Source of the DNA: a virus
Virus record (IMG/VR): IMGVR_UViG_3300019762_000005
Span: 28,676-92,675 of that record
Reading direction: 5' to 3' (one strand)
DNA length: 64,000 nucleotides
Shown here one piece after another: positions 28,547 to 43,164 of the stretch (position 1 is the stretch's first letter; every line of letters starts with the position of its first letter). Made by a program: the position numbers and the translations under genes. The notes beneath the pieces are model-generated. The model made no database searches. It had not been told where the DNA came from and saw nothing but the letters and a program-made list of their open reading frames with translations.

Positions 28547-30367
28547 ATGACAAAGAAAAGAAGTAAATTTTTATACAGCTTGGAGTCTTTTAATGATTTA
28601 TTTTGCGTTGTTTTTTTAAATACAGAGACAAAGGTCCACTTGTTTTATCAGATTAGTGAAAAGAATAATATGGTTGAAAAACTACAGAAATTTCTGATTA
28701 GCGGTATTCAATTGATAGGATACAATAGCATTGGTCATGATTATCAGTTGTTGCACGAAATAGTACTAGCTGATAACAATATAGGGCCCGGTTATATTCG
28801 TAAGATTTCAAAAGAAATATTGAAAGGAGAAAGAGCTATAAGCAATTCCAGTATATTTCCTCAATTAGATCTTTACAGGATAAACGGATATAACTCTAAA
28901 AAAATACCATTAAGTTGGTTGCAATTTTCTTACGGTAGAAAAGTAATAAGATCTATCCCTGTTCATAAAGATTATCTTTTAAAGAATGTCGACCATCCTT
29001 CTATAATTGATAGCTGTAGAGAGAATGTAGATTTCTTGAATGAGATTTACGAGAATTCAAAGCCAGCTATTAGAAAAAGAATGGCTTTATCTAAAGAGCT
29101 TGGAAACAAGGTAATGAATATGTCAAACAGTAAAATTGGAGAGTTACTGATAAGGACTGAATTTGAAAAAATATCAGCAAAGACAATTAAAAAAGGAATG
29201 AAAACCAGTTCGGTAGAATCTATAAAACTTTCTGAAGTAATACCTGATGATATTGAATATAATCATGTAGAGCTAAAAAAGTTTGTATCTAGGTTGTCTA
29301 AACTTGAAATACATCCAAAAGATAGTCTTACTACGGATATTGACCTAGACGGACTTGTTATCACATTTTCAAAAGGAGGCTTGCACACCAACGATGTCTC
29401 AGGAGTTATAGAGAATACTAAAGGAGCACTTGAAGAGCATGATGTAATATCAATGCACTCTAGCACCATTGTTAACGAATCTATAGCTCCTAGACATTTA
29501 GGTAGGCCTTGGATTAAAGCTGTTGGAAAAGTTAAAGACATGCGAATGGAGACTATAAGAAAAGACCCTTTAAAGAAAGAGGTGTTTTTCAAAGAAGCCT
29601 TAAACGCAGGTTCTTACGGAAAGTTGAATTATGCTCCATCTTGGCAGTACGACCCTTTAGCCTCCTATAAAACAACGATAATTGGGGAACTTAGGATGTT
29701 GGAATTGATCGACAAGCTAATAGCTATGGATGTTGAAGTGATTAGTGTAAATAATGACGGTCTAGTATTACATTATTCGGATTGGGATGAAAACCTAGTA
29801 GCTGATGTTATAGGTGCTTGGGAGTCAAAGAATGGATACTCTACAAAGAAAACTACTTTAAAAAAAATAGTTTATAACGGTATAAATAACTATATTGGAT
29901 TCCTTACTGATGGACATCTACTTAAAGGTCAATTTGCTATTAACAAGAGCAAAGCTAAAGACAATTCTAGGAAGATAATTCCAATAGCACTGTTTGAGTA
30001 TTTTGTGAATGGTAAATCCATAAAAGAAACAATAACCAACCATAAGAATATATTAGATTTTTGTGTTGGTTTGAAAGCTAAAGGTAAGGTGTACTGGATG
30101 TCTGACGAAGAAAATCCCATGAAAATAGAAAGAGAAGTTATAAGGTATTTCGTCTCTAACGATTCTGTGAAAATATTTGAAGAAGACATTAGAGGTAACA
30201 AGATTCCTTTAGAAAAAGGATTAAACATTACTATGTTTATGGAGGTTATAGAAGATGTTGATTATAATGTCAATTACAATTATTACATAAACGAATGCTC
30301 GAAGATTATTAGATCAGTAGAAGCAAGAAGAGACGATAAGAATTATAAACAAGAAAAACTATTTTAA
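28547..30367 (+). CDS. polB: Family B DNA polymerase with degenerate motifs
   Basis: GYNSIGHD (ExoII), GGLH, DVISMHSS (motif A), KEALNAGSYGK (motif B), NNDG (motif C), INNYI and KGQF. Confidence 0.85.
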   Translation: MTKKRSKFLYSLESFNDLFCVVFLNTETKVHLFYQISEKNNMVEKLQKFLISGIQLIGYNSIGHDYQLLHEIVLADNNIGPGYIRKISKEILKGERAISNSSIFPQLDLYRINGYNSKKIPLSWLQFSYGRKVIRSIPVHKDYLLKNVDHPSIIDSCRENVDFLNEIYENSKPAIRKRMALSKELGNKVMNMSNSKIGELLIRTEFEKISAKTIKKGMKTSSVESIKLSEVIPDDIEYNHVELKKFVSRLSKLEIHPKDSLTTDIDLDGLVITFSKGGLHTNDVSGVIENTKGALEEHDVISMHSSTIVNESIAPRHLGRPWIKAVGKVKDMRMETIRKDPLKKEVFFKEALNAGSYGKLNYAPSWQYDPLASYKTTIIGELRMLELIDKLIAMDVEVISVNNDGLVLHYSDWDENLVADVIGAWESKNGYSTKKTTLKKIVYNGINNYIGFLTDGHLLKGQFAINKSKAKDNSRKIIPIALFEYFVNGKSIKETITNHKNILDFCVGLKAKGKVYWMSDEENPMKIEREVIRYFVSNDSVKIFEEDIRGNKIPLEKGLNITMFMEVIEDVDYNVNYNYYINECSKIIRSVEARRDDKNYKQEKLF

Positions 30368-30368
30368 C

Positions 30369-31166
30369 ATGGATTGCACAAGGTTGAAAGATTATGATTT
30401 AATAATACTTAATACAAGCGCAGGTAAGGATTCTCTAGTAATGATGTGGGACATCTTAAGAAGAGCAAAAAAGGAAAACTACCCAATTGAAAGAATAGTG
30501 TGCTCACATCAAGACTTAGGTAGGTTCGAATGGCCAGGAACAAAAGTTCTTGTTGAGACTCAAGCTAGTATATTTGGATTAAAGACTTATTATTCTAAAA
30601 GAAGAAACAAGGACGGATACGAAGAAAACCTGCTTGAATATGTTTTAAGAAGAAGGAAGTGGCCATCTAATAAACAAAGATGGTGTACTAGCGACTTTAA
30701 AAGAGGTCCTGGAGCAAGAGTAGTGACTAAATTAACTAAAGATTTAGGCAAATGCAAAGTTTTATATGTGTTCGGATTTAGAAGCCAGGAAAGCCCTGCA
30801 AGAGCTAAAAAAAATGTTATAGAAATAAACAAAAATCTATCAACAAAAAACAGGACGGTACATACTTTTAATCCTATTCTAGGGATGGACATAAAGAAAG
30901 TTTGGAGAATAATAAAATTATTCAAACTTCCTTACCATTATGCTTATGACTTAGGAATGCCTAGACTTTCTTGTATATTTTGTATATTTTCTCCGTTTGA
31001 CGCTTTAGTTATAGCTGGTATCGAAAATATGGAATTACTGGAAGAATATATTTCTGTTGAAGAAGAAATAAATCATACTTTTAGAGATAAGTTTTCGTTA
31101 AAAGAGGTTAGAAAAAGCATAGAAGAAGGGTATAGACCTAAAGGAATTCCAGACTGGGTTATGTAA
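30369..31166 (+). CDS. PAPS-reductase-family (PP-loop) protein
   Basis: SAGKDS, RWCTSDFK, GFRSQESPARA and RLSCIFCIF motifs. Confidence 0.85.
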   Translation: MDCTRLKDYDLIILNTSAGKDSLVMMWDILRRAKKENYPIERIVCSHQDLGRFEWPGTKVLVETQASIFGLKTYYSKRRNKDGYEENLLEYVLRRRKWPSNKQRWCTSDFKRGPGARVVTKLTKDLGKCKVLYVFGFRSQESPARAKKNVIEINKNLSTKNRTVHTFNPILGMDIKKVWRIIKLFKLPYHYAYDLGMPRLSCIFCIFSPFDALVIAGIENMELLEEYISVEEEINHTFRDKFSLKEVRKSIEEGYRPKGIPDWVM

Positions 31167-35569: not shown

Positions 35570-36537
35570 ATCGCAAAATTAGTATTTATTGTTGGTGATA
35601 CCGGGAGTGGTAAATCGACTGCAATTAGGAATTTAGATCCTAAAACAACGTTGCTTATGAATAGCGACCAAAAGGACCTGCCGTTTAGACAGTTCTCTAA
35701 GAAGTATAACAAAGAAGCTAGAAATTACAAGAAAACTTCTGACTTAAAAGTCATAAAAAGATTGTTATTAAAGCTTAATGATGAATCTAATAAGCATGTT
35801 GAGGTAGCTATAGTCGATACGTTTACTCGTATAATGACTGACTATGTTATGAACAACAAGTTTAGATCTTCTAACGGATTTGAGAAATGGGGCAACCTAT
35901 CTGGAGACATGTATGACTTTATCAACATGATAAATGAAGTATTAAGAGACGATTTAATTATCTATCTGTTTTGTCATCCAGAAACAATAATTAGTGACGA
36001 AGGAAAATCGTACAAAAGAATAGCTTGTCAGGGTTGATAGAAAATGTTTGCCCATACTCCTCTAATTGCGGGAATATCCTTAGAGCTTTCAACTACCAAC
36101 CAACCACAGCAATGTAGGTTGGGGTCATAACTAACTATTATGAATATGGTAAAAACGTTGAAAGATTGGACAATCCGCAGCGAAGCCTCCTACATCCGTA
36201 GGTTAAACGTTCACAGACTATTCCGTAAGGAAGTAGGGCTATTTATAGTTCGAAACGGGGAGCATTTTACAAAAGTAAGATGAAGATATAGTCGGGTTTA
36301 TAGTGAAAGCTATAATGTAATACGAAACAATTAGAAAAGTTTGCACTAGAGAGCTTTAGTTCGATTGTGTTTTTCACTGAAGTAAAGGCGTTACCTTCAA
36401 AGCCTACTCAGTTCTTTTTTAGAACAGTAAATAAAGGTAAAGACTCTTGCAAGACTCCTATAGATATGTTCGAGGATGACTTAATAGAGAATGATTTAGT
36501 AATTGTAACAAAAAAAATAAAAGAATATTATGACTGA
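35570..36537 (+). CDS. AAA_24/Sak4-like ATPase, spliced (exons 35570-36034 and 36325-36537)
   Basis: IVGDTGSGKSTAIRNLDP and AIVDTF motifs. The joined reading IACQG|KQLEKFALESFSSIVFFT...KTPIDMFEDDLIENDL is in frame. The start appears to be ATC. Confidence 0.88.
36035..36324 (+). mobile_element. Group I intron (290 nt, no homing endonuclease)
   Basis: Exon ends in U (CAGGGT) and can pair with IGS GCCC. Core elements: P AATTGCGGGAA, Q AATCCGCAGC, R TCACAGACTA, S AAGATATAGTC. Terminal G at 36324. Confidence 0.92.
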
Positions 36538-37165
36538 TTTAAGTTTCGGTATACCAAAAAAAGCAGTAGTAATTTCATGGGATTTTAACCCTGAAATAGC
36601 AGCAATCAAAATCTCTAAAAAAGCTGAGAAAGGAAAAGCTACAAAGATAAGTCTTAACGCTAAAGGAGCTGCAATGCTTACTGGAGAAGGAGAAGATGCT
36701 TCTTTAGAGCAAATAGCTTTGAGCTTTGACGAAGAGAATAAAATCATGAGAGTGGCAAATATTAAGGTGGAGTCTTCTGTTAAGTTGACAAAATCCAATC
36801 CTCGTTCTTTCTCAAATTCAAGAACATACTTATATATTTGTGAGTTTTTAGGTTTGGACGGAGAAGAAGATGCTATTTTCGAATTAGTAGCTGAAGAGAG
36901 AGAATTCCCTTGTGTAGTATTAAGACCTATTGGAGCACCTATAGATTCTGCAGGTGAATCAGCTACGGAAGAAAATGATACTAAAGAAACTGCTCCTGAA
37001 GAGAGTCCAGAAAACTTACAGCCAGTTGATGCTGCTGAAGAAACTGAAGAAACAGAAGAAACATCTCCTGAAGCAGATAGTCCTAGTGAAGAAGAGGATG
37101 GTGGAGTAGATTCGTCTGATGTAGACAGCTCTGTTACTCAAGAAGACGAGGATGATTGGGACTAA
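36530..37165 (+). CDS. Hypothetical protein with long acidic tail ending DDWD
   Basis: 211 aa. Confidence 0.75.
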   Translation: MTDLSFGIPKKAVVISWDFNPEIAAIKISKKAEKGKATKISLNAKGAAMLTGEGEDASLEQIALSFDEENKIMRVANIKVESSVKLTKSNPRSFSNSRTYLYICEFLGLDGEEDAIFELVAEEREFPCVVLRPIGAPIDSAGESATEENDTKETAPEESPENLQPVDAAEETEETEETSPEADSPSEEEDGGVDSSDVDSSVTQEDEDDWD

Positions 37166-37250: not shown

Positions 37251-37874
37251 ATGAGTGTAGGAATTGATTTGAATGACGACGAGTTTAATGAAGGAGAATC
37301 TAAAGGAGCTATCAATGGTGGTAAAGCTGGATTAGTAGAAAACTTGTCATTTGTAAAAGTTACAAAAAAAGGAAAAGACGATCACGAAAAAGCTCCTGAT
37401 TATAAAGTTTTCTTTAAAGATGAAAATGGAGTCGAACTTGACATGCCTTTCTACTATTTAGATCCTTCGTTAGAATGGTTTCCTAAAGCCAAGAAAACTC
37501 AAGGGGCTGCAATGAAGTCGTTAATTACGACTATGATAGACCCTGAATACAACGAATGGGCTTTTGCTAGTTATAAAGCTATGTTGGACACCTGTATGAA
37601 AATGCTTAAAGATGCTGATACTGAGCCTCTTTATAGAATTGCTACGAACTACGGTACTAGCATGAGTCATAAAGCATTTATTCAGTTTAGAACGTGGACT
37701 CCATTTATTGAGTCTATGGAAGTTCCGATGGCTGAATCAAAAAAAGGATTACGTCCATCTAGTATTGAGATGTTGACTGGGTTAGAAGCTGACGAAGACG
37801 GTTCTGGTAACAGTCATTCTTCTACTCAACCTCCAGCTGGAGCTGCAGCAGCAGAAGAAGACGATTGGGATTAA
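37251..37874 (+). CDS. ssb: Single-stranded DNA-binding protein (crAss-like type)
   Basis: Lies between the AAA ATPase and primase; flexible linker and acidic tail EEDDWD. Confidence 0.65.
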   Translation: MSVGIDLNDDEFNEGESKGAINGGKAGLVENLSFVKVTKKGKDDHEKAPDYKVFFKDENGVELDMPFYYLDPSLEWFPKAKKTQGAAMKSLITTMIDPEYNEWAFASYKAMLDTCMKMLKDADTEPLYRIATNYGTSMSHKAFIQFRTWTPFIESMEVPMAESKKGLRPSSIEMLTGLEADEDGSGNSHSSTQPPAGAAAAEEDDWD

Positions 37875-37944: not shown

Positions 37945-38961
37945 ATGGTAGACCTTAATGAATTACAATACGAAACTAATTATGAAGAGCTGAGAGACTT
38001 AATATTTTCGAAATATTCAGATGAAGAAATATTTAGATATTACGTTGGAGATTTCAAAATAGGTAAAACATTTATAAGTCCATTTAGATCAGAGAGAATA
38101 CCATCCTTTGCTATTTTTATAGGAAAGAATCATGGAGACTTAATGTACAATGAGATGCTCTTAAAAGACAAGGGTGATTGCTTCAGGCTAGTGGAAAGAC
38201 TTTTCAACCTGTCAGCTATAGATGCTCTTTTAAAAATATGCTTAGATTTAAACATACAAAACACAGGAGTTTCAGATGTAGACAGAGTGAGGATAAAAGC
38301 GATAAAAAAGAACAGAGTAGTAGAACCCTTAAACATAGGAGTCAAATACAGAGAATGGAATAGAGAAGATAAGATTTTTTGGTCCAGTTTTGGAATATCA
38401 AAAAAGACACTACTAAGGTACAATGTTAGGCCTATATCTCATGTGTTTTTTAATGGCTTTATGGTAAAATGCGATCCTTTAGCTTATGCTTTTAAGGAGA
38501 TGAAAAAAGGAAATATAACCTTTAAAATCTATCAACCTCATTCAGAAACTAATAAATGGTCTAATAATCATGGTAATTCTGTAATACAAGGATGGGATCA
38601 ACTGCCTGAGACTGGAGAAATACTAATAATAACATCTTCATTAAAAGATTCAATGTCGATTATTGATAATAACAAAATACCAAGCATAGCTCCTCAAGGA
38701 GAAAATCACACGTTCTCTAAAGAGATAATCAAGGAATTAAAAGCAAGGTTCAAGAGAATATATATTTTCTACGATAATGATTACACCAAAAAGGTTAATT
38801 GGGGTCAAGAATACGCTATGGAGACATGTTTAGAGCATAACTTGTTAAATATATGTATTCCAGAAAAGTGTAAAACCAAGGATTATTCCGATATGATTGA
38901 GAGGCATAAAAAACAAAAAACAGTAAGATGGCTAGATTCAGTATTGAAAAACGTAGCTTAG
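37945..38961 (+). CDS. DnaG-type primase
   Basis: SPFRSERIPSF, KIYQP, TOPRIM IITSSLKD, YDND and KDYSD motifs. Confidence 0.88.
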   Translation: MVDLNELQYETNYEELRDLIFSKYSDEEIFRYYVGDFKIGKTFISPFRSERIPSFAIFIGKNHGDLMYNEMLLKDKGDCFRLVERLFNLSAIDALLKICLDLNIQNTGVSDVDRVRIKAIKKNRVVEPLNIGVKYREWNREDKIFWSSFGISKKTLLRYNVRPISHVFFNGFMVKCDPLAYAFKEMKKGNITFKIYQPHSETNKWSNNHGNSVIQGWDQLPETGEILIITSSLKDSMSIIDNNKIPSIAPQGENHTFSKEIIKELKARFKRIYIFYDNDYTKKVNWGQEYAMETCLEHNLLNICIPEKCKTKDYSDMIERHKKQKTVRWLDSVLKNVA

Positions 38962-39206
38962 AACTACCTATAGAACTATGGGGAAAATTTAGCAAAGAGG
39001 ATAAATTAGCTTTTATTCCAACAAAAATTAAAAATCACTACGCTGTAGTGAAGTCAAGATTAGGGCTTTCAAGTAAAGATGGAATCCGATATAGAGGAAT
39101 TAACCAAAAAGAATCTAATGTATTTGGTGACATTAGAAATGCAAACATTACATTTGCATTTAACTATAAAAAAACACCAGTAATAAAACTAAACATTATA
39201 GAATAA
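38928..39206 (+). CDS. Hypothetical protein
   Basis: TAATG-coupled to the Ubl gene. Confidence 0.55.
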   Translation: MARFSIEKRSLELPIELWGKFSKEDKLAFIPTKIKNHYAVVKSRLGLSSKDGIRYRGINQKESNVFGDIRNANITFAFNYKKTPVIKLNIIE

Positions 39207-39715
39207 TGAGATCAATAATAACTTACAGCACTAGAGGTGCTAAACTTGAAACAATAGAAAGTGATGCTACTAGATTAGGAGCTCTTAAAGAAGATATGGA
39301 TGAAGCTGGAATAGATTATTCAGGGTTAAAACTTATGGTTTCTGAGACCGAAGTTACTCTTGAATCTGACGAAGCTGTTCTTCCAGAAGGAGAATTCACA
39401 TTGATGATGCTTCCAGATGAGGTTAAGAGTGGAAACTCTAAAGACTGGTCAAAAATGTCCTACATTGAATGTTTTAATGAGGTGAAATTAAGAAAACTTA
39501 TAAGTGAAGACGGTCTTGACGTTAACTTAGATTTTCAAGATTTAGTTTCAATTCTTAACAAGTCAGACTTAGAAGGTTCTGATTACGGAGTAGAAAAGAA
39601 AGAAAGCCTTGAAGAAAGAATGGATAGATTAGAGAAAAAAGTATCAGAACTAAGCTCAGGTCCAGATACGTCTACCTATGCTAAAAGAGCAGCGGAGTTA
39701 GGAAGAAAAAGATAA
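39206..39715 (+). CDS. Ubiquitin-like precursor (beta-grasp 1-76 ending KSG plus C-terminal helical extension)
   Basis: beta-beta-alpha-beta-beta pattern: ATRLGALKEDM helix, LESDEAVLPEG, FTLMMLPDEVKSG76; sits next to E2, JAB and E1 genes. Confidence 0.7.
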   Translation: MRSIITYSTRGAKLETIESDATRLGALKEDMDEAGIDYSGLKLMVSETEVTLESDEAVLPEGEFTLMMLPDEVKSGNSKDWSKMSYIECFNEVKLRKLISEDGLDVNLDFQDLVSILNKSDLEGSDYGVEKKESLEERMDRLEKKVSELSSGPDTSTYAKRAAELGRKR

Positions 39716-39741
39716 GGCTGTTAATCAGTATTTTTTAACAC

Positions 39742-39770
39742 AAAGGGAGGCGTTGCTTCCCTTTTTTTTT
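39742..39770 (+). terminator. Intrinsic terminator between Ubl and E2
   Basis: AAAGGGAGGC-gtt-GCTTCCCTTTTTTTTT. Confidence 0.75.
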
Positions 39771-39779
39771 GCAAAAAAA

Positions 39780-40760
39780 ATGACAAATAAAGAACAATGC
39801 GAAGAGGTATTACAGAGAATGTTTAAAGATTCTTGGGAGATAAAGAACGAAGAAATAGTAATAAGAATAAAAGACTTAACGATAAGAAATTCAAAACAAA
39901 AATCTCATGTTATAGATGATATATTTGTCAAGATTAAGGTGAATGAAAGTATGAAGTTTAAAACAGCTGGATTAGAAGGTTTTAGGTCAATATTCAAAAT
40001 AAAAGACTTCTCATCTAGTTATGCTCACTCTCATTTACCAGGAAGTTGCGTTAGAAATTCAATGGATTTTAAGAGCTTCTGCTTAGGAACAGGACCTATA
40101 AACACGATAATAATGAAGCTTGTAGCTAAGTTTGATATCACTAGTTTCACTTTTTTTCTTCATCAACTTAAAGTTTATCTAGGCTGGGAAAGTTTAGAAG
40201 GGAGACCTTATAAACTTATGTCTGGAATCAAGCTAAAGCTTGACCACTCATCTTCTCGAAGTATATCGGTATTAGACTTTCTTCTTGATGACGTAATTCT
40301 AATGTCAAAGTCAATGAGGTTTAATATATTGTTGTCAGAAAATGAAGTCAAAATACTTAGAGACAGTACCTTTTACGAGAATGTAAAGAACTATATAGTT
40401 TCAAACGAAATACCTAATTGCATGTTTTTGTTTAAAGATGGAAAATACAGTAATGACGATGTTCTAGTAGGCGATGGATTAGGTTACGACACTATAGATA
40501 ATGATTTTATAAAGATTAGAAACAAGGACAAATTTATTTTTAGAGATGAAGAAATAAGGATCTCTTTTTCGGACTACAAGCTTGGAGAAAATAATAAAAA
40601 ACTAGGTGTCGAAGATAGAGAAGAAAAAATCGTTCATCATAAAGTTCTTGATAAGATAGAAGAACATTTAAACACATTATTAATTAATTATTATGAAAAA
40701 AACAATAAAAGAATTGCCGAGAAAACCAGAGATTATCGTTTCAAAAAAGTTATTGTATAA
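39780..40760 (+). CDS. Prokaryotic E2-like conjugating enzyme
   Basis: YAHSHLPG...FCLGTGPI resembles the HPH..xCLG active site of prokaryotic E2s; operon context. Confidence 0.68.
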   Translation: MTNKEQCEEVLQRMFKDSWEIKNEEIVIRIKDLTIRNSKQKSHVIDDIFVKIKVNESMKFKTAGLEGFRSIFKIKDFSSSYAHSHLPGSCVRNSMDFKSFCLGTGPINTIIMKLVAKFDITSFTFFLHQLKVYLGWESLEGRPYKLMSGIKLKLDHSSSRSISVLDFLLDDVILMSKSMRFNILLSENEVKILRDSTFYENVKNYIVSNEIPNCMFLFKDGKYSNDDVLVGDGLGYDTIDNDFIKIRNKDKFIFRDEEIRISFSDYKLGENNKKLGVEDREEKIVHHKVLDKIEEHLNTLLINYYEKNNKRIAEKTRDYRFKKVIV

Positions 40761-41811
40761 GATACATAGGCTTTGTCAAAAAAATGTTAGGATAGAATGG
40801 TCTGGAATAATGTTTCATAAAGAACTGGAAGGTGACATGTCAGACCCTTCTGGATTTAAGTTAGAAATAGTAGACATGTTACTAATGGATGTAGGTACTC
40901 ACTCGTTTACGTCTTACAAATTTGATGCAGATTTCGTAAGGTTTATGAAAAAGAATCCTGAGTATATGAAAATGAAGCTTTCTCAAATTCATTCCCATAA
41001 CGATATGCCTGTATTTTTCTCCTCTACAGATGTAGACGAGTTAAAAATAAATTCTCCTAATCACTTATACTATTTATCATTGATAGTTAACAATGCTGGA
41101 GATATGGAAGCTAAGATAGCTGTTTCAAGAAAGACTAAAAGTGTTCAAACAACAGTCATAGATTACAAGAAATGGGAAGAAGGAAAGTGGAAAGATAGTC
41201 AAAGAACCGAAGTTAAAGAGTTTGAGTCTAAAGAGATGGAAACATTCGATTGCAACATAAAAGTTGAATATGATCCTGAATTCGAAGAAAGAATGGAATA
41301 TATAGAGAAAGTTTCAAAAAAGCGTGCTGAGGAAAAATTAAAACTTGAACGTGAACTTAGATTTAAAGATAGTAGAAGTATAGAAAGACTACCATCGTTA
41401 TCTACAAACAGTTCTCTTCACGGGAAAAACAAGCAAATGATGGCTAATTTTGACAACGACGATTGGGATGTTGAAGAAGAAGAAGAAAACAAAATTATTC
41501 ATGTTCAAGAAATTTGGGCTAGAGTTTCATTTGGCAAGAACTTCAAGACTGATTTTATAAATGTAGACACAATTAAAGATACATTGAAGGTGTTAAACGA
41601 AGGTATTCCTGTCGATAAAAACAAGTTTGTAACAAGTCTTGAAAAAGACATTGTTGATGCTATTGGAGTTATGAAACTTAAAGGATCTATAGGTGAATAT
41701 ATAGACATGCTTAGAGACGAATTAGTAGAATATGAAGGAGACTTCAAATTTGCTAAAAGATTAGTAGAGCATTTAGATAACAATGTAATACCTAAATACT
41801 TTACTACATAA
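40693..41811 (+). CDS. JAB/JAMM metallo-isopeptidase
   Basis: EWSG plus exact HxHx7SxxD (HSHNDMPVFFSSTD), and YLSLIVNN. Confidence 0.88.
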   Translation: MKKTIKELPRKPEIIVSKKLLYKIHRLCQKNVRIEWSGIMFHKELEGDMSDPSGFKLEIVDMLLMDVGTHSFTSYKFDADFVRFMKKNPEYMKMKLSQIHSHNDMPVFFSSTDVDELKINSPNHLYYLSLIVNNAGDMEAKIAVSRKTKSVQTTVIDYKKWEEGKWKDSQRTEVKEFESKEMETFDCNIKVEYDPEFEERMEYIEKVSKKRAEEKLKLERELRFKDSRSIERLPSLSTNSSLHGKNKQMMANFDNDDWDVEEEEENKIIHVQEIWARVSFGKNFKTDFINVDTIKDTLKVLNEGIPVDKNKFVTSLEKDIVDAIGVMKLKGSIGEYIDMLRDELVEYEGDFKFAKRLVEHLDNNVIPKYFTT

Positions 41812-41813
41812 TT

Positions 41814-42560
41814 ATGAGCACTATAAAGAAAATAGATTTAGCAGAAGCACATGAATCTGTTTCGAGATTTAAGGGTGCTGAATGGATGGTAGAACCGTTA
41901 GATATTTTGTTACTAGGTGCTGGAGGTATAGGTAGTTGGACTGGATTTTTCTTGTCAAGAATAGGCCATAATCTATCTGTATTTGATGACGATACTTATG
42001 AAGTAGGAAATATGTCAGGACAGTTCGTAGCTAATTGCGGAGTAGGTGTTCAAAAAAGTGAAGCTTTAGTCGATTTGATGTATGGGTTTAGCGGTGAGGC
42101 CCAGACTTTTAATCATTCTAATTACGGAAGGTATGAAGAGAACAGTATGACATCTCCTATTACCATAGCTTGTTTTGACAATATGGCTTCAAGAAGACTT
42201 GCATTTGACAAGTGGTTTAACTATTTGAGAGAAAATCCCGACAAAAGAAAGGATGCTATATTCATAGATGGAAGACTACTTGCTGAGCTTTTTCAGATAT
42301 TTACTATCCAGGGTAGCGACATCAAACAGATAAAAAAGTATTACAAGTATTTGTTTAGTGATGATGTAGTAGAGCCAGAAGATTGTTCATTGAAGCAAAC
42401 AAGCCACGTAGCTGCAATGATAGGTGCTGAGATAACATCTACATTTAATAATTGGATTGCTAACAAGGTTACTGGCATAAATTTTAGGAAAGTCCCTTTC
42501 TATCAGGAAAGATTTACACCTACAATAATGCAGAAACTTAAGTCTGAAAAAGAAATGTAA
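41814..42560 (+). CDS. E1/ThiF-family activating enzyme
   Basis: LGAGGIGSW, DDDTYEVGNMSGQ, CFDNMASRR and IDGR motifs; candidate catalytic Cys in EDCSLKQT. Confidence 0.9.
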   Translation: MSTIKKIDLAEAHESVSRFKGAEWMVEPLDILLLGAGGIGSWTGFFLSRIGHNLSVFDDDTYEVGNMSGQFVANCGVGVQKSEALVDLMYGFSGEAQTFNHSNYGRYEENSMTSPITIACFDNMASRRLAFDKWFNYLRENPDKRKDAIFIDGRLLAELFQIFTIQGSDIKQIKKYYKYLFSDDVVEPEDCSLKQTSHVAAMIGAEITSTFNNWIANKVTGINFRKVPFYQERFTPTIMQKLKSEKEM

Positions 42561-42561
42561 T

Positions 42562-43164
42562 ATGTATTATAAAAACTACAATCGAAACGAGCAAAAGCCT
42601 TCATTTAGGTTTTTAGCTAACGAAAATACATGGGTAGATCCTAGCTACAGTAATGTTAAGTTAAGACTTTACCAAAGTGTGCTATTTAATTCAAGTGTAA
42701 ACAGAAACAGCATGAAGTCAATGTTGATGAATTTTAGTAGCAGTAATACTCAAAATTGGGAAGTTCGTATTAATGGTGGTCAATGCGTTTTTCTGTGCGG
42801 AGGAGGATTCCTTTATGACTACACTGCTGGTAAGTTTCTAGCAATTATGACTATAGATAGAGATTACCAAGACTTACCTATACTAAATAGTAGGTTAGTG
42901 GATAGATTTTCGTTTATGACTGTTAGGTTTTCAAGAGAATTTTACGAAGGTAAAAACAATGTATATCAGAAACTATTCAGGTCTTTCAAGTTCAATGCAG
43001 CTCCTAGATTAAAGAAAGAAGGAGTTTCGTTTGAAGTTGTAGAAGATTATAGAGATATGATGTCTGGAGTGAGAAAGATTATAGACTTAAGCGATCATAA
43101 AACGATAGAAGATATTAACCAATACAAAGAGAGAGTAGCTAATGAATTTAAACATAGGGAGTAA
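42562..43164 (+). CDS. Hypothetical protein downstream of E1
   Basis: 200 aa, starting 1 nt after the E1 stop. Confidence 0.65.
   Translation: MYYKNYNRNEQKPSFRFLANENTWVDPSYSNVKLRLYQSVLFNSSVNRNSMKSMLMNFSSSNTQNWEVRINGGQCVFLCGGGFLYDYTAGKFLAIMTIDRDYQDLPILNSRLVDRFSFMTVRFSREFYEGKNNVYQKLFRSFKFNAAPRLKKEGVSFEVVEDYRDMMSGVRKIIDLSDHKTIEDINQYKERVANEFKHRE

Follow-up and report, generated by a model that had tools for sequence, protein, structure and literature searches.

A probable virus-encoded ubiquitin-like conjugation operon in the replication module of crAss-like phages

Can a phage possess a complete ubiquitin-like conjugation system of its own? To our knowledge, the prokaryotic systems of ubiquitin-like conjugation that have been characterised all belong to the host, where they act as anti-phage immunity (CBASS Cap2/Cap3, Bil and probably Bub). 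The question is raised by four adjacent plus-strand genes of the virus record IMGVR_UViG_3300019762_000005, of which we analysed the right-hand 64 kb (positions 28,676 to 92,675; the record is complete, comprises 92,675 bp and carries direct terminal repeats). This whole stretch is called the window in the following, and its own numbering is used for all coordinates unless a related locus is named. A sequence-only reading of the window had claimed that these genes encode a ubiquitin-like modifier (Ubl), an E2, a JAB protease and an E1 activator, in other words a phage-encoded Ubl conjugation operon inside the replication module. The list of open reading frames (ORFs) and their translation place the four genes and all of their motifs as described below, and at the computational level the interpretation is supported, conjugation itself being what we infer from it. 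We consider it probable that the operon is a virus-encoded Ubl conjugation system, which belongs to the core replication-module gene set of a large crAss-like clade.

The same four families occur together far beyond the window. Using tblastn, matching phage records were found for the E1 (79), the E2-like protein (73) and the Ubl (64), and the carriers include crAss001, 24 PhiCrAssBcn isolates, DAC15/17, several metagenomic Steigviridae with 'cr' designations, Kolpuevirus/Kehishuvirus isolates and 29 FpV4-like Flavobacterium phages. In five annotated genomes, the genes follow each other in the order primase, Ubl, E2-like protein, 'metalloprotease', 'ThiF', unknown gene and uracil-DNA glycosylase (UDG). 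A blastn comparison of the operon DNA with 50,697 phage records gave no match, and a search for related loci with a single E1 sequence returned nothing; with an E1 alignment as query, the search of IMG/VR succeeded and yielded 365 relatives, from which 80 loci were kept, and 86 loci in total were compared. According to profile searches of their ORFs, Ubl, E2-like protein, JAB and E1 are arranged in this order and on one strand in 83 of the 86 loci, the other three being cut by a contig end, and in all loci the operon is located between primase and UDG/exonuclease genes. Since the same four families keep their order and strand in 83/86 loci, the arrangement is not a chance juxtaposition. The synteny extends across Steigviridae-type crAss-like phages and the FpV4-like Flavobacterium phages, and the placement inside the replication module also holds for the window itself, with the primase 5' and the exonuclease and UDG-like genes 3' of the operon. 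By its sequence, the source virus is a distant crAss-like phage, because a 1262-aa protein matches the crAss-type 'RNA-polymerase subunit' and the local gene order is that of crAss001. How widespread the operon is can be seen from a search of 1.84 billion proteins with the E2-like profile, in which representatives of 3350 clusters formed at 50% identity were recovered, 1719 of these below 1e-30. Judged from these comparisons, we are dealing with a large, conserved and previously unnamed gene set. A literature search with thin coverage of subscription journals yielded no description of an E1/E2/JAB/Ubl operon encoded by crAss-like or other phages.

What kind of protein is the presumed modifier? 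The first gene (39206..39715) encodes a pro-Ubl of 169 aa (PHROG 15560), in which a ubiquitin-fold domain (residues 1-76, 39206-39433) ending in ...VKSG is followed by a helical C-terminal extension of 93 aa (39434-39712). The N-terminal domain had been proposed to be a beta-grasp domain, and an AlphaFold model built from a 30-sequence alignment bears this out with a ubiquitin-type fold: residues 1-70 are predicted with a pLDDT above 95 and are arranged in the order beta-beta-alpha-beta-beta-beta. A Foldseek comparison of this model with the PDB gives ubiquitin as the best match, and the top 50 consist almost completely of ubiquitin, NEDD8 or other ubiquitin-fold domains (TM-score 0.55-0.69 by target, root-mean-square deviation (rmsd) 2.5-3.0 Å over 74-77 columns, about 20% identity, probability 1.0). 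Bacteroides fragilis ubiquitin is among the matches, and neither ThiS nor MoaD is found in this top 50. At the level of sequence, no Ubl family (Pfam ubiquitin, ThiS, Prok_Ub and others) is matched at E<=1 by any of the 30 members, the Ubl alignment has no meaningful match among PDB profiles, and a word-index protein search returns only the query itself.

The C-terminal end of this domain is of particular importance for a modifier. Gly76, proposed in the sequence-only reading as the residue to be exposed by the JAB, is invariant in 30 non-redundant homologues, and the preceding Ser75 (S75-G76, 39428-39433) is at least 90% conserved in the same set, which results in the consensus [KR]-S-G. In four lineages the Ubl stands alone and terminates in '...KSGK' (L012), '...KSGR' (L033/L034), '...KSGK' (L053) or '...KAGKQN' (L029), and the extension is not found elsewhere in these loci. 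In locus L018 (2952-4250 of that locus), the Ubl reading frame is interrupted immediately behind '...KKIRSG' by a gene for an HNH-type homing endonuclease, and the extension forms a separate ORF. Among the homologues, the extension ranges from 93 to about 210 residues and is variable in sequence. The natural short forms, the insertion in L018 and the variable extension together mark the position just after Gly76 as a module boundary, and the pattern of the gene is that of a precursor that would be trimmed to its C-terminal glycine. The extension itself has the consensus MSRxEAYxxIK..GLQ...FGKNFT.C.T.DL..L. Its sequence set shows weak matches to SAP (E 0.007) and HeH (E 0.044), one member each, and it may be a small DNA-binding module that is freed upon cleavage.

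Directly after the Ubl stop, in the gap between the Ubl and the E2-like gene, we found a terminator-like hairpin (39742..39773, plus strand) with a GC-rich stem of 10 bp (39742-39764) followed by a run of nine T. This hairpin after the Ubl gene is a new finding of the present analysis. A hairpin with a T-run is present in 61 of 69 distinct Ubl-E2 intergenic regions from the related loci L001-L085, compared to 1 of 58 at the JAB-E1 junction that was used as a control, and between lineages its sequence differs whereas the structure is kept. This suggests an attenuation between the gene of the tag and the genes of the enzymes. As a partial terminator, the hairpin would probably make the Ubl transcript more abundant than the enzyme transcripts, and such an excess of tag over enzyme fits well to a modifier that is consumed stoichiometrically beside catalytic enzymes.

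The candidate for the processing of the precursor is the product of the third gene (40693..41811), a JAB/JAMM metalloprotease of 372 aa, whose C-terminal region has no assigned fold. The exact JAMM motif that had been claimed is confirmed by translation: E35 (40795-40797, within EWSG at 40795-40806) is followed by HxHx7SxxD in the form HSHNDMPVFFSSTD (40990-41031), with H100-x-H102 at 40990-40998, S110 at 41020-41022 and D113 at 41029-41031, and all five residues are invariant in 27 full-length homologues. Pfam Prok-JAB is matched by 27 of 27 members at E<=1 (best 1.6e-5) and no other family is recurrent; the copy in the window reaches 14.6 bits (E 0.031) against a cut-off of 25, and the alignment has no meaningful match among PDB profiles. 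In crAss001, where the four proteins are gp79-gp76, the JAB orthologue gp77 is annotated as a metalloprotease. Upstream, the JAB gene overlaps the E2-like gene by 68 nt in the window (40693-40760) and by about 60-170 nt in almost all loci. As the overlapped N-terminus of the JAB belongs to the conserved fold, the overlap is real and indicates a tight translational coupling of both genes. In three loci, the JAB gene is split inside the HxH codons by inserts of 1.3-1.5 kb (L017:4188-6551, L029:4506-6906, L076:4266-6555), and the insert in L017 carries a 340-aa ORF of the LAGLIDADG type. The three inserts are independent of each other and are probably homing elements directed at the sequence of the active site, either group I introns or elements of another kind.

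Which activating enzyme would act on the exposed glycine? The fourth gene (41814..42560) encodes a minimal E1 of 248 aa, which consists of a ThiF-family adenylating domain. The assignment as ThiF/E1 with a GAGGIG motif (41916-41933) stands, as Pfam ThiF (PF00899) is matched with 4.4e-8 and 33 bits against a cut-off of 28.1. In a profile comparison with the PDB, UBA5, itself a minimal E1 that forms a thioester, is the best match (5e-14), followed by MccB/PaaA, TcdA, ThiF, UBA3, Uba1, MoeB and Cap2 (3.6e-8), and the PADLOC 'E1-E2' models of Cap2 match the protein down to 1e-7, in the E1 region only. An alignment to Escherichia coli MoeB using hhalign has a probability of 97% and covers the N-terminal half. 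Invariant or nearly so are R18, G35-x-G37-G38-x-G40, D58/D60, N66, K81, D122-N123, R127 and C191, and out of these the G-loop, D58/D60, K81 and D122-N123 align to the equivalent positions of MoeB. They supply the family's GxGxxG for nucleotide binding, its acidic ligand of the ribose, its Lys and the Asp of the DN motif that binds Mg. The 'lone' cysteine of the sequence-only reading has to be corrected, as C75, C120 and C191 are all present; C191 (42384-42386, within CSLKQT at 42384-42401) is, however, the only invariant one. What longer E1 homologues have in addition are non-conserved N-terminal extensions only.

The combination of E1, JAB and a beta-grasp protein is also a signature of sulfur-transfer operons (PMC1779556), and the E1 goes under the name 'thiamine biosynthesis protein ThiF' in public records. 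The Ubl could in that case be a sulfur carrier like ThiS, MoaD or TtuB, on which the E1 makes a thiocarboxylate for the thiolation of nucleotide, tRNA or phage DNA, while the JAB exposes or recycles the carrier as QbsD and Mec+ do. Moreover, the earlier statement that there are no sulfur genes nearby does not strictly hold for the window, since a gene of the PAPS-reductase/PP-loop family is located 8 kb upstream (30369-31166), directly after the family B polymerase (PolB). As a conserved partner of the operon, however, this gene had to be rejected: PAPS reductase and the ATP_bind_3 (TtuA/Ncs6-type) PP-loop families are absent from five of five other complete operon-bearing phages, and the gene is therefore a lineage-specific addition. 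The nearest structures of the Ubl are ubiquitin and NEDD8 rather than sulfur carriers, and a rhodanese domain is found neither in the E1 nor anywhere in the complete genome. In addition, the Ubl ends in Ser-Gly, whereas characterised sulfur carriers end in Gly-Gly, and sulfur transfer leaves the UBC-fold protein without a role, although this protein is strictly conserved and its Cys invariant. Taken together, sulfur carriage appears highly improbable to us.

This UBC-fold protein is encoded by the second gene of the operon (39753..40760), with 335 aa from a TTG start (PHROG 15310), and is composed of a UBC-like N-domain (approximately residues 11-160) and a variable C-terminal half. The true start is probably the ATG at 39780 (Met10), because the TTG at 39753 falls inside the hairpin and Met10 aligns with a nearly invariant Met. 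The model of the N-domain (pLDDT 85-98) contains a helix, four strands, a long loop and then further helices, an order which agrees with that of the UBC fold (helix 1, four-stranded meander, active-site loop, helices 2-4). Foldseek with the whole model gives nothing at E<=0.001 and the fold call thus rests on VIA-align. In a wide VIA-align search against structure representatives, about 43 of the top 50 rows are E2, UEV or RWD domains, and a second look at the Foldseek candidates with the same program raises this to 47 of 50. These rows have Z-scores of 4.4-5.8 at an rmsd of about 4 Å, with about 120 of about 150 target residues aligned (approximately 80% of the UBC core), and include the Bub E2 9eav_D (Z 5.2, rmsd 3.8 Å, 108 residues). 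As Z is modest, we assign the UBC fold on the basis of the consistency of the match list and not of the score. A search of the ESM Atlas with the N-domain returned sub-threshold unnamed clusters only.

The HSH..FCLG protein had been put forward as the E2, and the conservation of its residues is compatible with this. Among 151 sequences with pairwise identities of <=50%, N46, S93, H94, C110, G112, E146, S147, G150 and P152 are invariant in 151/151, as is the H92-S93-H94 triplet (40026-40034) as a whole. The presumed catalytic Cys110 (40080-40082, within FCLG at 40077-40088) is found in the loop preceding helix 2, and the HSH triplet and C110 are both placed between strand 4 and helix 2, where E2s have their HPN and Cys. 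The spacing between HSH and Cys is longer than in canonical E2s.

In Xanthomonas and Erwinia jumbo phages, a ThiF homologue with 30% identity adjoins topoisomerase genes (L086, Xanthomonas phage PhiXhv-16, 2214-5588). The gene in front of it encodes a protein of 892 aa, which is rich in Cys at both termini and whose 'IHPHM...SLCLGSF' motif looks like the active site of an E2. We rejected the Xanthomonas protein as a relative of the E2-like family, since hhalign of the E2-like profile against it shows no relationship and the likeness exists at the level of the motif only.

A different question is whether the acceptor of the tag needs to be a protein. The best Foldseek matches of the E2-like model are weak hits to chains of Atg3 (E 0.06-0.1), and an E1-E2 cascade could in principle charge something other than a protein, for example the head group of a lipid, as Atg8-PE is formed via Atg7/Atg3, or a nucleotide or DNA end, in order to mark membranes or replicating DNA. 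The embedding of the operon between primase and UDG/exonuclease genes in all loci and the SAP/HeH matches of the Ubl extension would be in line with this. On realignment, however, the Atg3 matches are not distinct from ordinary E2s, the extension is absent in four lineages, and a location in the replication module is weak evidence of a substrate. We therefore regard a non-protein acceptor as hardly any more probable than sulfur carriage, and prefer conjugation to proteins.

Several observations weigh against a thioester cascade that runs from E1 to an E2. The Ubl terminates in Ser-Gly and not in Gly-Gly. In the E1, Gly69 (N66-M-S-G69-Q70, 42009-42023) is invariant in 30 sequences at the position where the 'RQ' of E. 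coli MoeB has its Arg, and other E1s likewise carry an ATP-binding Arg in this 'N-x-x-R-Q' motif; the glycine could reflect an altered mode of nucleotide binding or be compensated by R18 or R49, both of which are invariant. The C-terminal half of the E1 is not alignable to any solved E1. Because of this, C191 is assigned to the crossover loop from its position in the chain only; in a protein of 248 aa, this position presumably is about where MoeB and ThiF have their catalytic Cys. For the E2-like protein, the best fold matches have a Z of 5-5.8, which by VIA-align's own calibration can be a common arrangement, and the UBC-like fold also covers the non-catalytic UEV and RWD domains. Neither Pfam UQ_con nor Prok-E2 is matched at E<=1 by any of 36 members, and there is no match among PDB profiles. 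Finally, the invariant H92/H94/C110/E146 could serve to bind a metal and not to form a thioester.

The points concerning the second protein can be combined to an E2-independent system after the model of archaeal SAMP/UbaA/HvJAMM1 or Thermus TtuB/TtuC. There, the JAB would process and the E1 activate the Ubl, the UBC-fold protein would serve as an adaptor of the UEV/RWD kind or as a scaffold that binds metal, and any conjugation would take place directly from the E1. E2, UEV and RWD domains all appear at the same Z, and the fold match cannot separate them; the invariant HxH, C and E could form the metal site, and the protein has no sequence link to known E2 families. On the other hand, the order of the motifs between strand 4 and helix 2 is that of catalytic E2s, in which a His triplet precedes the Cys. 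Furthermore, the Cys is invariant in all 151 of the divergent sequences, whereas UEV and RWD domains characteristically lack it, and the E2-like protein is as strictly syntenic as the enzymes. For these reasons an E2-independent system seems unlikely, although it is the most serious of the competing explanations, and we continue with the E2-like protein as the E2 of a thioester cascade.

Based on these data, we propose the following mechanism. The tag would be made as a precursor of a ubiquitin-fold domain and a helical C-terminal extension, probably from a transcript that outnumbers those of the enzymes owing to the hairpin. The JAMM protease would then cut after Ser75-Gly76 and leave an exposed C-terminal glycine. 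The E1, a single-domain enzyme that probably forms a homodimer as MoeB and UBA5 do, would adenylate Gly76 and take over the tag onto Cys191 as a thioester, from where it would move to Cys110 of the UBC-fold E2-like protein and be transferred to lysines of phage or host proteins. Specificity possibly comes from the variable C-terminal half of the E2-like protein or from the fast-evolving gene 3' of the E1, and removal of the tag may be a second task of the JAMM enzyme. What we infer here are the cleavage, the adenylation, the two thioesters, the conjugation and its targets. A more far-reaching version, which we put forward tentatively and hold to be possible rather than probable, is that a working thioester cascade is used offensively or for the control of the phage's own replication, by tagging host proteins of defence, replication or proteolysis, or proteins of the phage replisome.

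How does this cassette compare with known systems? The closest counterpart in composition is Bil (BilABCD, types I/II), a bacterial ISG15-like conjugation system directed against phages (PMC10557695, PMC11601596). Both share four components, with BilA (Ubl), BilB (E2), BilC (JAB) and BilD (E1) listed in the same order (PMC11601596), a Cys-based chemistry, putative in the case of the phage, and the lack of an E3 gene, the E2 being proposed to choose the targets. In contrast, the phage cassette is viral and part of a replication module, whereas Bil resides in a bacterial defence island; the phage E1 has one domain only, of about 230-250 aa, and BilD is reported as IAD-AAD-CYS. In addition, the phage Ubl and E2-like protein match no existing profile, and the Ubl usually carries a long C-terminal extension.

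As proposed for the phage Ubl, the Bub system (formerly 6E/DUF6527, PMC11601596) employs a fusion Ubl precursor that needs JAB cleavage (BubAB cut by BubCD). Its E1 is homodimeric and single-domain, and its E2 9eav_D belongs to the structural neighbours mentioned above. However, Bub uses Ser/Tyr oxyesters with an E1 and E2 that have no catalytic Cys, whereas the phage E1 and E2-like protein each have an invariant one. Moreover, the phage genes are separate and not fused as Ubl-E2 and JAB-E1, and scans of the operon ORFs detected no DUF6527 protease.

Type II CBASS is similar in the relation of the E1 domain to Cap2 (PADLOC 1e-7; PDB 3.6e-8), in the logic of E2, E1 and JAB, and in the activation of a C-terminal Gly, as proposed for the phage. 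It differs in that the phage operon has no CD-NTase or effector, PADLOC on the operon genes matching the E1 region of Cap2 only and giving no cyclase or effector match. Furthermore, the E2-like protein and E1 are separate where Cap2 is an E2-E1 fusion, and a dedicated ubiquitin-fold tag takes the place of the CD-NTase tail.

The only phage Ubl-JAB pair found in the literature searched is the tail-assembly protein TAPI of lambdoid and T1 phages with the JAB-containing TAPK (Iyer et al. 2006, PMC1779556). It is likewise phage-encoded, the Ubl has a conserved C-terminal Gly and is fused to a C-terminal domain, and the JAB is predicted to cut at this Gly. In contrast to the full set in the replication module described here, the pair belongs to a tail module and is not accompanied by E1 or E2. 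UBA5-UFM1 resembles the phage system in the compact single adenylation domain of UBA5, which is the best PDB profile match of the phage E1 (5e-14). The archaeal SAMP/UbaA/HvJAMM1 system resembles it in the partnership of a JAMM protease with a Ubl but works without an E2. The phage E1 deviates from UBA5 and UbaA by the Gly at the position of the ATP-binding Arg, as judged from the MoeB alignment, which has low identity and is limited to the N-terminal half. Altogether, the cassette would work like Bil, Bub or CBASS, yet it fails defining features of each of them.

In this context, the full tool-kit here is viral, lies among the replication genes and is as conserved as those genes, in a clade of thousands of sequence clusters. 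Two of the four families, the Ubl and the E2-like protein, are not recognised by public profiles and are called 'hypothetical' in deposited genomes. If a thioester cascade in the service of the phage is confirmed, it would reverse the roles known from Bil, where the bacterium tags the proteins of the phage, and it would represent a core and possibly essential function of a very abundant clade of phages of gut and aquatic Bacteroidota. Several carriers are available in culture: crAss001 and PhiCrAssBcn grow on Bacteroides intestinalis, DAC15/17 grow on B. thetaiotaomicron, and the host of FpV4-like phages is Flavobacterium psychrophilum. The targets and the purpose of the tag are therefore open to direct experiments, which could uncover a new level of the conflict between phage and host, or of the control of replication, in those phages that are most abundant in the human gut.

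Are further genes part of the system? On the plus strand 5' of the operon, the replication block comprises the family B polymerase, the PAPS-reductase-like gene, helicases, a DnaB-like helicase, a Sak4-like ATPase and the primase (37945-38961), and 3' of the four genes follow two unknown ORFs, a PD-(D/E)XK exonuclease, a UDG-like gene and a MazG-like gene. The first of the downstream ORFs (42562..43164, plus strand) encodes 200 aa and is translationally coupled to the E1, and its membership in the system is uncertain. In nearly every locus, the E1 stop is followed within a few nt by an ORF of 166-362 aa, the sequences of which diverge fast between loci. The ORF of the window has no significant match to any downstream ORF of the 86 related loci and none in Pfam, PHROG or PADLOC. 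Likewise, a conserved fifth family had to be rejected for the window, as a profile built without the copy of the window scores it with 2.7 bits. A second ORF of 92 aa (38928-39206), which is possibly not a real gene, has no recognisable domain and is without a homologue in the 86 loci. The proposal that these two ORFs are E3s or adaptors is thus unsupported, as neither has a detectable homologue in the 86 loci or a recognisable domain.

Further upstream, the adjacent ORFs at 36530-37165 and 37251-37874 have no family match and both carry acidic tails ending in '...DDWD', and the JAB protein of the operon contains an internal 'DNDDWD'. These DDWD motifs may be partner-recruiting tails like those of single-stranded DNA-binding proteins or a common docking motif.

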